NCBI GenBank assembly: GCA_964016885.1
Contig: OZ024743.1
Location: 202,492,001-202,556,000 of the forward strand
Reading direction: 5' to 3'
DNA from: Eledone cirrhosa
Lineage: Eukaryota
DNA length: 64,000 bases
Part shown: positions 28,245-60,577 of the stretch, piece by piece
Position numbering within the stretch: the first letter of the stretch is position 1
Layout of the letters: each line of letters opens with the position of its first letter
The notes under the pieces: model-generated
Told to the model about the DNA's origin: nothing
Seen by the model: only the letters and a program-made list of their open reading frames with translations
Databases searched by the model: none
Position numbers and translations under genes: made by a program

Positions 28245-28639
28245 ATTTACTCCGTCACTCCTATGTGGAAAAAGTACGTTGAGTGATTGAATTGAATTGC
28301 ATCAATATTTACCCTAATATATATATAGACATGTATATACATATATAGACATGTATAAGGCATATATATATATATATATATATATATATATATATATATA
28401 TATATATATATATAATGTATATACATATATATATATATACATATATATATTTGTATATATATATATATATATATATATATATATATATATATATATATAT
28501 ATATATATATATATGTGAATATAGACATAGAATATTCGAAAATATTCTGTATGTTTATAATAAACATTTTGAAGACCTAATCGCTATAGAATAGAATACG
28601 TCACGTATTACAATTAGATTCTCGATAAAAGCAAGGGAA

Positions 28640-28682
28640 GTAATCTACGCGTTTCATTCTTGTTAGAAATCATCAGGACTAC
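28640..28682 (-). ncRNA. Type I hammerhead (further - strand copies at 28950-28992 and 29260-29302)
   Basis: Reverse complement of GTAGTC-CTGATGA-TTTCTAACAAGAAT-GAAA-CGCG-TA-GATTAC. Confidence 0.88.
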
Positions 28683-29686
28683 ATATCCAGTGCTTTTATC
28701 GAGAATGACACAGCTAGAGACTTATAGAATACTTAGCTGTGTACAGGAACTGGTTTGAAAGAGCGGTTGCCGGTCCGGCAGAAATTAGAAATTGGAATAA
28801 ATGCTCTGAAATAGCGATATATATGTGAATATAGACATAGAATATTCGAAAATATTCTGTATGTTTATAATAAACATTTTGAAGACCTAATCGCTATAGA
28901 ATAGAATACGTCACGTATTACAATTAGATTCTCGATAAAAGCAAGGGAAGTAATCTACGCGTTTCATTCTTGTTAGAAATCATCAGGACTACATATCCAG
29001 TGCTTTTATCGAGAATGACACAGCTAGAGACTTATAGAATACTTAGCTGTGTACAGGAACTGGTTTGAAAGAGCGGTTGCCGGTCCGGCAGAAATTAGAA
29101 ATTGGAATAAATGCTCTGAAATAGCGATATATATGTGAATATAGACATAGAATATTCGAAAATATTCTGTATGTTTATAATAAACATTTTGAAGACCTAA
29201 TCGCTATAGAATAGAATACGTCACGTATTACAATTAGATTCTCGATAAAAGCAAGGGAAGTAATCTACGCGTTTCATTCTTGTTAGAAATCATCAGGACT
29301 ACATATCCAGTGCTTTTATCGAGAATGACACAGCTAGAGACTTATAGAATACTTATAGAATAAAAGCACTGGATATGTAGTCCTGATGATTTCTAACAAG
29401 AATGAAACGCGTAGATTACGTCCCTTGCTTTTATCGAGAATCTAATTGTAATACGTGACGTATTCTATTCTATAGCGATTAGGTCTTCAAAATGTTTATT
29501 ATAAACATACAGAATATTTTCGAATATTCTATGTCTATATTCACATATATATCGCTATTTCAGAGCATTTATTCCAATTTCTAATTTCTGCCGGACCGGC
29601 AACCGCTCTTTCAAACCAGTTCCTGTACACAGCTAAGTATTCTATAAGTCTCTAGCTGTGTCATTCTCGATAAAAGCACTGGATAT

Positions 29687-29729
29687 GTAGTCCTGATGAT
29701 TTCTAACAAGAATGAAACGCGTAGATTAC
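29687..29729 (+). ncRNA. Type I hammerhead (further + strand copies at 29377, 29997 and 30307)
   Basis: Stem I GTAGTC/GATTAC, core CTGATGA...GAAA, palindromic CGCG stem III, GUA cleavage triplet. Distal stem I extension ATTCTCGATAAAAGCA/TGCTTTTATCGAGAAT. Confidence 0.9.
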
Positions 29730-31249
29730 TTCCCTTGCTTTTATCGAGAATCTAATTGTAATACGTGACGTATTCTATTCTATAGCGATTAGGTCTTCAA
29801 AATGTTTATTATAAACATACAGAATATTTTCGAATATTCTATGTCTATATTCACATATATATCGCTATTTCAGAGCATTTATTCCAATTTCTAATTTCTG
29901 CCGGACCGGCAACCGCTCTTTCAAACCAGTTCCTGTACACAGCTAAGTATTCTATAAGTCTCTAGCTGTGTCATTCTCGATAAAAGCACTGGATATGTAG
30001 TCCTGATGATTTCTAACAAGAATGAAACGCGTAGATTACTTCCCTTGCTTTTATCGAGAATCTAATTGTAATACGTGACGTATTCTATTCTATAGCGATT
30101 AGGTCTTCAAAATGTTTATTATAAACATACAGAATATTTTCGAATATTCTATGTCTATATTCACATATATATCGCTATTTCAGAGCATTTATTCCAATTT
30201 CTAATTTCTGCCGGACCGGCAACCGCTCTTTCAAACCAGTTCCTGTACACAGCTAAGTATTCTATAAGTCTCTAGCTGTGTCATTCTCGATAAAAGCACT
30301 GGATATGTAGTCCTGATGATTTCTAACAAGAATGAAACGCGTAGATTACTTCCCTTGCTTTTATCGAGAATCTAATTGTAATACGTGACGTATTCTATTC
30401 TATAGCGATTAGGTCTTCAAAATGTTTATTATAAACATACAGAATATTTTCGAATATTCTATGTCTATATTCACATATATATCGCTATTTCAGAGCATTT
30501 ATTCCAATATATATATATATATATATATATATATATATATATATATATATATATATATATATATATATATACAAATATATATATATATATATATATATAT
30601 ATATATATATATATATATATATATATATATATATATTAAGACATGGGGGAAGAAAAGATGGCTTCACTTGTGCTTTCAACAAATTTATTTTCTTCACGAA
30701 ATCCAAAAATAATTTTTTTCCGGATTAGAAAAAAAATCTTTTTCTTAAAAAAAAATGATTTTATAAATTAAGTTAGGTCTTAGGAGTTCTTGGTTAACGT
30801 AGGAGGTATTGTTTCGTTTTTAGATCGACCTTTCACGCTGAGGTGCGCTTGTCAAACTGATGTGTATGTGGTGTGTTGTTCTATATATAGGGATTTGACA
30901 TGTCTGTGGTGTGGTGGAGTTTTTTTCTCCCTCTTTTTAATGTGTATGGGTGTAGGTGTGTTGAAAAAGTGTTAATAGCAGTAATGAGTTGAGACGGTGA
31001 GTAGGGTTGGGTGGGGAGAATTGTAGCAAGTGCGGCCTGCCCCGGTCATTCTCGAAAAATTCCTTTATTCAGGGGATTCCTTTGTGTTGAGAATGGTCAC
31101 AGGCAAATCGCACCTGCCAAGTTTGTAAACAATTATATTTTTCTGAAGAATTTTTCTACGTCCGTCCCAAAATTAGTCCTTTGTTCAACACACACATATG
31201 TGCGTATATACGTACATACACACACGGGCATATGTAGGAATATATAGGC

Positions 31250-57522: not shown

Positions 57523-59488
57523 CTTAAGAAGAAGAAGAAGAAGAAGAAGAAGAAGAAGAAGAAGAAGAAAGATGCCTCGATTGCAATCGGTTTACGACAT
57601 AAATTATATAGAAATGCATTAAATCGGTTCAAATAAAAATAAATCACGACAGCTCCATGTCGCTTTCTGGTGGCAGGCAGTTAGGTGGTGCGATCGAGGA
57701 AGGAAATATGTCACTATCACCACTATAAAACAATTATTTCTGGAGCCTTTTACAATTGACTTGCCCTAGTTTTGATAGGAATAACTAGTGTAGTGATTAG
57801 GGAGGTTTAAATCAGTTGTTGCATTATACTCGTTTGCCATTATATTCGTAGTAGTTTCTTTGTATTATGTTATATATATATTTATATATATATATATATA
57901 TATTTAAAAGAATAGAGGTGTAACACACGAGTTATGATATATTGGTAAAGTATTAATACAAAAATTCTGTATATATATATATATATATATATATATATAT
58001 ATAACGAAGGAAATGTGGTAAGGAACCAGGTGGACCATAACGCACCAAAACCAGGTGGACCATAACACACCATAACGTCCAGAAATAGCCGTCGAAACGG
58101 CTTGAGCCCAGCCGTCGGGGTCCTACTCGTTCCTATATATACTATATATATATATATATATATATATATATATATATATATATATATATATATATATATA
58201 TATATATAATGGTAAACGGAAAAGAAAATGCTGACAAATTGTTCACAGTGAAAAATAGTTTAATTAGGAATAAGTGAAAATTAGTAATAGTATTGGTTAG
58301 TATTCAGTTTTGGTTTTAAGTTTTACCGGTTGCGCATTTCTAATGCTTTTCAAAATTAATTTTGAGATAGAGCGTCCGTGATGTTTGCTCTAATCTGGAT
58401 TATATATATATATATATATATATATATATATATATATATATATATATATATACAGACTTTTTGTATTAATACTTTCTTTCAATAAACATACTTCATCATT
58501 TGTGAAGATGTCATATATAAGTGAAGGTATGTATAGCTCCTCTGATAATTTGTAATATTTTTATACATACATCTTTAATATGATATACATACCAACACAT
58601 ACATATATATCCCAGAAACGATCGTAAAATGATGATTTTTGCAATATAAGGAACCTGTTCATTGTTTTTATTATTTTATACATATATATATATAGTTATT
58701 AAAATAACAGATTAAAGTTTAAGCAGAGAATCGTTGTTTTCACCCTTAACGGGATCTTCTTTGAGCTAAAAAAATCAATATACATACACACACACACACA
58801 TATATATATATATATATATACACACACACACATATATATATACATATATATATATATATATACGCTGTTATAAATGGACTACATTTTGCAGGATATTAAT
58901 TTCGGAACGTATTTTTTTTGTTTAGCTGATTCCGTAGTTTTATATAATTGATTTCTTCTTAATTGAATTTTTTTTTGTCGGTTTTATAAATGTAAATTTA
59001 ATTGGACTTATTGGATCACGGTTGTCTTATCAGAGATAATTAAATTTAAATCGAGTTCCCTCAGTTGTTAGGTTGTTAGAATTGTCGTTATTTATATTAA
59101 AGTAATGTGCGTGTGCTATATAGACACAAACACATAAAAGCATACGTCTATGTCTGTGGGTCACTGAGCATTGAACATATACATAGAGCTGCACATATAC
59201 GCAAAATCATGTATATATATATATATATATATATATATATATATATATATATATATATATATATATATATATATATATATATATATATATATATATATAT
59301 ATATATATATATACATATATATATATATATATATATATATATATATATATAATTAAAGGTTTAACAAGGTTAAATGAATTAATCAATGAATAAAGTTTCT
59401 CAATAGATTAGAACCACTCTACAGTTAGGTTTTCTGGAGTTATTAATATTAGTTTAAAATATTAATAAATATAGATTTTCATGTGATA

Positions 59489-59734
59489 AAATATATTTTA
59501 TTATACATATTTTAGAGGTACTGAGCTATTTCAACAGTATGTCCTCATCAGATAAAAATAAGTTGATGCCTGACATACCACGTCTATGTTGATGGTTATA
59601 ATTTAGTCATGGCATGCCTAAATTATAACCATCAACATAGTCAAGGTATGTCAGGCATCATCTTATTTTTATTTGATGAGGACGTACTGTTGAAATAGTT
59701 CAGTACCTCTGAAATATGTATAATAAAATATATT
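59489..59734. repeat. About 120-bp-arm near-perfect palindrome with a hammerhead-like core in each arm
   Basis: Centre at about 59610. The left arm on the - strand reads CTGATGA-GGACATACTGTT-GAAATAGCTC; stem I pairing is weak. Confidence 0.75.
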
Positions 59735-59804
59735 TGATGAAATGAATGACTATATTTTTTTAATATTTTGAAGTAATATATATATATATATATATATATA
59801 TGGA

Positions 59805-60577
59805 TGTATATATAATGTATTTTGCAATACACTTTATGCTTAATTAAAAGCATTTTGAAGACCGTAAGCTATTGTTTTAAAGTAGTGACAAATTCACTCA
59901 CTTTGATCTCAGCAAACAAGGGAGATAAGCCGACAAGACTTGTTTCGCTTTGGTTGAAGCTTATCAAGGCCAACTACCCCACCTGTTTGCTGAGATCATT
60001 GATGTTATATTCTTATAGAAATCTAGTAAATAATCAGGAGCTGATTATGCAGAGCGGTTGTCGGTAAGCTTCAATCAAAGCGAAACAAGTCTTGTCGGCT
60101 TATCTCCCCTGTTTGCTGAGATCAAAGTGAGTGAATTTGTCACTACTTTAAAACAATAGCTTACGGTCTTAAAAAAGCTTTTAATTAAGCATAAAGTGTA
60201 TTGCAAAATACATTATATATACATCCATATATATATTGCTATTTCAGAGCTCCAATTCTAATTTTTAATTTCTGCCTGACCAACAACCGCTCTGCATAAT
60301 CAGCTCCTGATTATTTACTAGATTTCTATAAGAATATAACATCAATGATCTCAGCAAACAGGTGGGGTAGTTGGCCTTGATAAGCTTCAACCAAAGCGAA
60401 ACAAGTCTTGTCGGCTTATCTCCCTTGTTTGCTGAGATCAAAGTGAGTGAATTTGTCACTACTTTAAAACAATAGCTTACGGTCTTCAAAATGCTTTTAA
60501 TTAAGCATAAAGTGTATTGCAAAATACATTATATATACATCCATATATATATTGCTATTTCAGAGCTCCAATTCTAA
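59805..60577. mobile_element. Retrozyme-like element (316-bp unit): inverted part plus about 1.6 direct units, with U3-A8 hammerheads
   Basis: Diverged relative of 36470-37195. HHRs at 59928-59971 (-) and 60373-60416 (+). Strand switch at about 60065; ends GCTATTTCAGAGCTCCAATTCTAAT followed by (TA)n. Confidence 0.87.
60373..60416 (+). ncRNA. Type I hammerhead with U3-A8 core
   Basis: GGCC-TTGATAA-GCTT caacca AAGC-GAAA-CAAGTCTTG-TC-GGCT; distal helix GATCTCAGCAAACA/TGTTTGCTGAGATC. Confidence 0.83.

Follow-up and report, generated by a model that had tools for sequence, protein, structure and literature searches.

Ribozyme repeats arranged head to head

How does a tandem repeat that encodes no protein and carries a hammerhead ribozyme motif in each unit come to lie in TA microsatellites as two arrays pointing in opposite directions? 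Three loci raise this question in the 64,000-nucleotide stretch of the Eledone cirrhosa genome analysed here (assembly GCA_964016885.1, contig OZ024743.1, positions 202,492,001 to 202,556,000 of the forward strand; hereafter the window). Each consists of 310–321-bp units in two head-to-head arms and is flanked by (TA)n. We found that these repeats, which belong to the non-LTR (non-long-terminal-repeat) retrozymes, have two fixed ends, and it is quite likely that they insert by means of a borrowed Penelope-like element (PLE) protein, probably of the Hydra clade, whose reverse transcriptase (RT) and GIY-YIG endonuclease would nick both (TA)n strands and start one complementary DNA (cDNA) at each end site from the same RNA.

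All three loci have a minus-strand arm followed by a plus-strand arm, and at each outer end the RNA-sense strand terminates with its 3' end. At locus 1, the inverted arm (28507..29355, minus strand) holds 2.7 units of 310 bp and the direct arm (29360..30508, plus strand) holds 3.7; the units are about 100% identical to each other, a 4-nt insert separates the arms, and (TA)n tracts lie to the left (28317..28514) and right (30507..30636). Locus 3 is built of 316-bp units, with an inverted arm at 59792..60068 (minus strand) and a direct arm at 60065..60578 (plus strand) that overlap by 4 nt. At locus 2, a short inverted arm (36467..36653, minus strand) adjoins a direct arm (36654..37194, plus strand) of 320–321-bp units with an internal jump in the first unit. 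The units of loci 2 and 3 are 87% identical, those of locus 1 share 66–68% with either, and the motif GCTATTTCAGAGC..CCAAT..TAATTTCTGC..GACC..CAACCG is common to all three. The initial annotation had given the coordinates, unit sizes, layout in (TA)n and shared 3' motif of these loci, all of which match the sequence. It had also described the units as lacking an open reading frame (ORF), which agrees with a longest ATG frame of 82 codons among three arrays and with the absence of PLE matches inside the arrays.

A type I hammerhead motif in every unit

The hammerhead core of locus 1 (29693..29723, plus strand) comprises CUGAUGA, stem II, GAAA and a short palindromic stem III; its predicted cut follows position 29723, and the motif recurs every 310 bp. 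The cores of locus 2 (36988..37025, plus strand) and locus 3 (60377..60412, plus strand) read UUGAUAA, not CUGANGA, and thus have U3-A8, a hammerhead variant described in PLEs (PMC4209133); the locus-2 core, like its family, has one extra A ahead of GAAA. In an alignment of 10 sequences from at least 5 subfamilies, pair 3-8 is C-G in five, U-A in five and broken in none. The same alignment shows covariation in stems I and II and in several hairpins downstream, with 94% of cells pairing vs 29–41% in slid controls, although the sequences are related to one another and the structure was drawn from them. This covariation supports ribozyme function without proving it. None of the 150 Rfam rows listed, out of 170, named a hammerhead family.

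In the locus-1 family (loci L247–L266), variants concentrate at hammerhead position 7, in stems I and II and in loop II, with the core mostly spared, a pattern that suggests selection on the ribozyme. Single copies depart from the core: L143 carries U4A, and the GAAA box of L257 is altered in the one unit displayed. A type I motif in each 310–321-bp unit, with no protein frame and no LTR structure, fits the non-LTR retrozymes, whose tandem repeats measure 150–450 bp, and not the plant LTR retrozymes, in which a type III hammerhead lies in LTRs and a 4-bp target duplication is made.

Two fixed ends used as a pair

Measured from the predicted cut, the outer ends fall at two places. Site A lies in an AUAUAU run at +131–140 and closes the inverted arm (+139 in locus 1, +140 in locus 3); site B, 26 nt farther on at +166, with stops to about +175, closes the direct arm (165, about 169–174 and 166 nt past the cut in loci 1, 2 and 3). 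The 26-nt tail between them in locus 1 (30484..30508, plus strand) is predicted to fold into a GCU-loop-AGC hairpin. With ends at +140 and +166, copying starts away from the ribozyme cut, as in PLE insertions, and the initial annotation had correctly placed the direct-arm ends there. The single fixed priming site that it proposed gives way to two start sites used as a pair. Nor is the inverted arm merely a partial copy, as it had been taken to be; its outer end is fixed as well, and at other loci it is often the longer arm.

The genome was counted by sequence patterns; the words of the locus-1 unit are too common for a plain DNA search. The shared junction pattern had 1,553 matches; exact copies numbered 4,217 for the locus-1 ribozyme and 995 for the B junction of locus 1 into (TA)n, while every reversed control gave 0. 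The family is young and abundant, and it sits at a thousand or more TA-repeat sites. For an older family, we took the first 100 junction matches listed, which lie on contig C1 and form 66 clusters, and used 60 of these clusters, with one duplicated copy dropped; the locus-1 family was sampled at 12 loci chosen by ribozyme and 20 by B junction. One insertion, at 2897–3549 and 5348–6000 of L035, occurs in two copies with identical flanks, spaced 2,451 bp apart, which marks a local duplication after insertion.

Among 47 two-armed insertions of the older family, 40 pair A with B, none pairs A with A, two pair B with B (the second end not being TA-flanked) and five have one atypical end. Its 18 single-armed arrays end at A in seven cases, at B in seven and elsewhere in four. 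All 27 two-armed insertions of the locus-1 family are A+B, and 5 further loci are single-armed or run off the fetched stretch; 18 of the 27 had been chosen by their B end, and the opposite end was A in 18/18. In a further subfamily, read by eye, A+B was found in 11/17, the rest being cut back or complex. If the tail were lost after insertion, A+A and B+B would be expected, and both are nearly absent. Random ends would have spoken against the initial annotation; the ends are instead fixed at A and B and almost always paired, with one of each per insertion, which gives the inverted 5'-truncated copy and one-sided tail of a PLE insertion (40/47 and 27/27).

The same data bear on whether the arrays could be satellites that expanded where they stand, through unequal exchange or slippage, or artefacts of assembly at TA tracts. 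Local amplification of retrozyme arrays has been proposed (bioRxiv 10.64898/2026.07.22.740005), TA tracts are hard to assemble, and growth in place may have lengthened some arms. As an origin of the arrays, however, this is very improbable in view of the 995 exact B junctions scattered through the genome, the ends that are fixed and paired, the junction scars peculiar to each locus and the locus-specific variants found in every unit of both arms; the words of the unit are also present in six public runs, possibly including the source sample. No RNA data set was among those listed with these words, a result that carries no information about expression.

Arms, inner junctions and target

The two arms of an insertion share sequence variants. 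Among young loci with both arms of at least 250 nt (n=22), the variant sets match between arms in 20, and where any variant is present the arms agree in 13/15 cases vs 5.4% across loci. Divergence in the older family is 1.8% within arms, 2.0% between arms and 3.9% between loci. The arms also read through the ribozyme site: inner breaks lie at the cut in 5/80 cases (expected 4.3) and in 1/54 (expected 3.0), with no pile-up and a distribution compatible with uniformity. Because inner breaks show no excess at the cut, the template would be a circle or an uncut multimer. Those of the locus-1 family are slightly grouped at unit positions 12–23 and 260–267, the two strands of a long hairpin around the ribozyme, with uniformity not rejected.

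Arm lengths within an insertion are uncorrelated (rho -0.12, n=40; rho 0.29, p 0.14, n=27), and the longest arm reaches 5.9 kb. These lengths help to weigh a mechanism in which only one cDNA is primed and then folds back, or in which a double-stranded inverted intermediate is cut by the endonuclease at a fixed place, so that the second end is a product of resolution. Such a mechanism accounts directly for variants common to both arms, one junction has a 16-nt overlap inside the unit's own hairpin, and self-priming (PMC3846280) and endonuclease-mediated resolution (PMC8557442) are published accounts of PLE inverted repeats and tails. Fold-back, however, expects the copied arm to be shorter and the lengths to be similar, whereas either arm may be the longer (the A arm in 23/40 and 12/27 loci) and the difference is below 60 nt in only 4/40. 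Two internal starts have moreover been seen directly in vitro (PMC11167929), and we consider fold-back unlikely.

Junctions between arms were scored in the young family, since mismatches left 9 usable of 37 in the older one. Of 27 junctions, 15 are blunt or overlapping, 11 contain 1–23-nt inserts and one contains a foreign piece; microhomology of at least 2 nt occurs in 12 of the 15 blunt or overlapping ones, against a null of 19%. The foreign piece is a 272-bp G+C-rich sequence between the arms of L180 (2399–2670). At L177 and L181, G+C-rich sequence adjoins or lies near the inner end, and such pieces possibly represent template capture during joining.

The target is (TA)n, as in the Hydra and Naiad clades of PLEs. 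A TA run of at least 8 nt adjoins 65/77 B ends vs 6.1% of random positions, a figure that includes 18 loci selected with TA in the pattern. For two insertions in host repeats, the paralogous empty copies hold about 12–13 AT repeats at the site, and the (TA)n therefore pre-dates insertion, in line with the microsatellite targeting put forward earlier; together with the dispersed B junctions, these empty sites establish the repeats as mobile. De novo synthesis of the tract by RT was rejected on the same two sites, although RT may still lengthen it. On its left, locus 3 adjoins another inverted hammerhead-bearing PLE end (59446–59779) in the same TA tract, an instance of PLE-type insertions clustering within the same microsatellites.

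Coding PLEs and the search for a partner

Two coding PLEs lie in the window, and their frames were identified by motifs and relatives, with no Pfam name for either. The element at 32249..35435 (minus strand) is 5'-truncated; its frame (34047–35405) encodes the end of an RT, a CxCx5C linker and a GIY-YIG-like end, it has a tail of about 170 nt, and its short inverted arm (35359–35435) mirrors 32420–32496. The element at 41711..45458 (plus strand) is 5'-truncated and broken, with a frame at 42027–42788 followed by a stop and a frame change, a tail of about 85 nt, and an inverted arm (41704–41999) that mirrors 45079–45374 and has its own hammerhead. The inverted 5' copy ascribed to both elements is thus present, but neither is an intact donor. 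No sequence match was found between the 32249..35435 element and the retrozyme units.

A relative of the window's PLE led us to four PLE families with intact ORFs of about 710 codons. All four have RWK or RWR, DKT and CxCx5C, which by motif are marks of the Hydra clade, a clade described as inserting in (TA)n (PMC8557442). In one coding family, the pairing is A+B in 4/4 two-armed copies, and the tail measures about 70 nt. An RCTC..GAGY stem begins within about 10 nt past site A in all 8 other PLE-type families with a placeable site A (chance 0.8% each), these families having been taken as encountered, one of them read by eye, and the motif having been noticed after the fact. The corresponding retrozyme hairpin is a 3-pair GCT..AGC, which turns to GGT..ACC in four genomic copies.

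The units themselves lack the RT and GIY-YIG ORF between pseudo-LTRs (pLTRs) that marks an autonomous endonuclease-bearing (EN+) PLE. A PLE protein match lies near 16/72 loci and inside the array at none. Several neighbouring PLE fragments carry hammerheads of their own that differ from those of the units, and 20 B junctions without the exact ribozyme pattern, examined as possible partner ends, were all ORF-less variants. The L114 PLE family matches the units only in the 28-nt ribozyme core, at 89%.

These results also speak to the proposal that the units are solo pLTR arrays of an autonomous PLE family beyond the reach of our searches. The hunt for an autonomous PLE with a matching pLTR, suggested in the initial annotation, gave no match in the four intact families or at 30 GIY-YIG loci, with 56 of 85,686 and 150 of 10,596 candidates scored, a small share that leaves room for such a family. 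Vertebrate retrozymes are reported to be often pLTR-related (bioRxiv 10.64898/2026.07.22.740005), and the 28-nt hammerhead match to a coding family points the same way. However, the units follow one another without an intervening ORF or untranslated region, with as many as 18 complete units in a single arm; at 0/72 loci does an array hold or run into a PLE ORF start, an attachment that had been named as grounds to overturn the initial interpretation; and for 17 single-armed arrays, the 1.5 kb upstream contains no PLE ORF on the same strand. We therefore regard solo pLTR arrays as improbable, though the units may derive from an ancient pLTR.

Further features accompany these elements. The 3' region of the 41711..45458 PLE contains about 73 near-perfect TTTTAT repeats (43445–43883). 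An inverted ORF-less PLE end with hammerheads (9379, plus strand; 8453, minus strand) occupies 8368–9464, resembles the pLTR of the intact L091 family and encloses a fragment related to the 32249 element's 3' end, with its own short inverted arm. Probable PLE fragments were indicated by tblastn at 17030–17305 and 17990–18247 (an inverted pair within 16959–18305) and at 40710–41307, and by the ORF list at 35768–36391, where no Pfam match was obtained. Frames of the long interspersed nuclear element (LINE) type lie at 2794–6114 (minus strand; 1,106 codons with RT, zf-RVT and an AP-type endonuclease match) and at 50079–51734 (plus strand; RT and zf-RVT).

A proposed two-start model of insertion

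Since no PLE with a homologous terminal repeat was found, we infer the partner enzyme from the insertion signature only; of the parasitism on PLE RT/GIY-YIG proposed earlier, it is the PLE signature that is borne out. In the mechanism that we favour, the unit RNA would be transcribed and would cleave itself and circularise, although an uncut multimer would also fit. A Hydra-type RT/GIY-YIG protein would bind this RNA, presumably recognising the hairpin just past site A, and would nick both strands of (TA)n. At A, the TA end of the target may pair with the AUAUAU run of the RNA to prime one cDNA, while the other would be primed at B with little homology. Two RTs would then work on one template, each cDNA running through many units, and the two cDNA ends would be joined by microhomology-mediated repair. 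A more specific form, which we advance tentatively and hold to be somewhat doubtful, is that a dimer of PLE RT settles on a single circular retrozyme RNA, at the hairpin also seen in coding Hydra-type PLEs, and begins two rolling-circle cDNAs simultaneously, one at each start site and each primed from a different target strand.

Several observations weigh against this mechanism. Seven of the 47 two-armed insertions, including the two B+B cases, are not clean A+B pairs, the inverted arm of locus 2 in the window has an atypical outer end (+69), and either end of the complex locus L201 is A-like. The arms disagree at 2/15 informative loci; in the older family, an arm's nearest match is the other arm of its own locus in only 11/32 cases; and a single predominant source locus, or conversion of one arm by the other, could account for the shared variants. 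The retrozyme hairpin has 3 pairs vs 4 in the coding families. No PLE terminal repeat matching the units was found among 50 loci of the four intact families, at the 30 GIY-YIG loci or in the 3' parts of PLE fragments nearby, and at L067 and L088 a same-strand PLE fragment, in both cases without an ORF start, follows the array's atypical end. For the Poseidon PLE in vitro, no start-site difference between strands was seen, whereas here each arm has one site (PMC11167929).

Relation to known systems

The family is new and its kind is known, each single trait having been reported for PLEs or retrozymes. Rather than the new superfamily first suggested, it is a family of non-LTR retrozymes, for which mobilisation by PLEs from circular RNA has already been proposed (PMC7229834; bioRxiv 10.64898/2026.07.22.740005). 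As described in these sources (Cervera and de la Pena 2020; Li, Clavereau and Pollet 2026), animal non-LTR retrozymes likewise have tandem 150–450-bp units, each with a type I hammerhead, no protein, low G+C and PLEs alongside. Unlike those described there, most insertions in Eledone are pairs of arrays joined head to head, with both outer ends fixed and set in (TA)n; PMC7229834 does not use the word "inverted" in its main text, and this anatomy was not found in parts 1–3 of 5 of 10.64898/2026.07.22.740005. In contrast to retrozymes related to pLTRs, no pLTR homologue was found here in the PLE loci searched.

EN+ PLEs of the Hydra clade, as presented in the sections consulted of Craig et al. 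2021 (PMC8557442) and Arkhipova et al. 2013 (PMC3846280), share the inverted 5'-truncated copy, the tail at one end, the hammerhead and (TA)n targeting. The units differ from them in having no RT or GIY-YIG gene, in arms that are many-unit arrays, and in a tail of 26 nt vs about 70–170 nt in coding families of the same genome. Non-autonomous Chlamys elements such as MRC1 are also PLE derivatives with multicopy head-to-tail insertions, but according to the same account (PMC8557442) their 3' end resembles autonomous families and most lack a hammerhead. The purified Poseidon PLE of the green anole (Frangieh et al. 2024, PMC11167929) is reported to extend both strands, with AT-rich nick sites and a predicted dimer, and to start RT at two internal sites downstream of the cut with the tail between them, as proposed here; its starts lie about 85–92 nt from the cut, as computed from numbers in that paper, vs 140 and 166 nt in the retrozyme. 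Paired start-site use, inverted retrozyme anatomy and the shared hairpin were not found in the literature searched, nor was any publication on these repeats themselves, within a scope that did not take in supplements, where such structures may appear, or subscription papers on Drosophila Penelope.

The enzyme that moves animal retrozymes and the origin of PLE tails and inverted repeats are open questions in the consulted parts of PMC7229834, PMC8557442 and 10.64898/2026.07.22.740005. This family provides direct footprint evidence for the mobilisation of retrozymes by PLEs, together with three measurable constraints: each start site gives rise to one arm, the two arms derive from the same variant of the RNA, and copying does not halt at the ribozyme cut. 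A near-identical young 310-nt unit and intact Hydra-type ORFs occur in one genome, which makes the question testable by a published in vitro assay. If the reading of a dimer with two starts is true, the PLE tail and inverted repeat would have a general explanation, the class of enzyme behind the movement of animal retrozymes would be identified, and a natural 310-nt substrate that is mobile without pLTR homology would be at hand.

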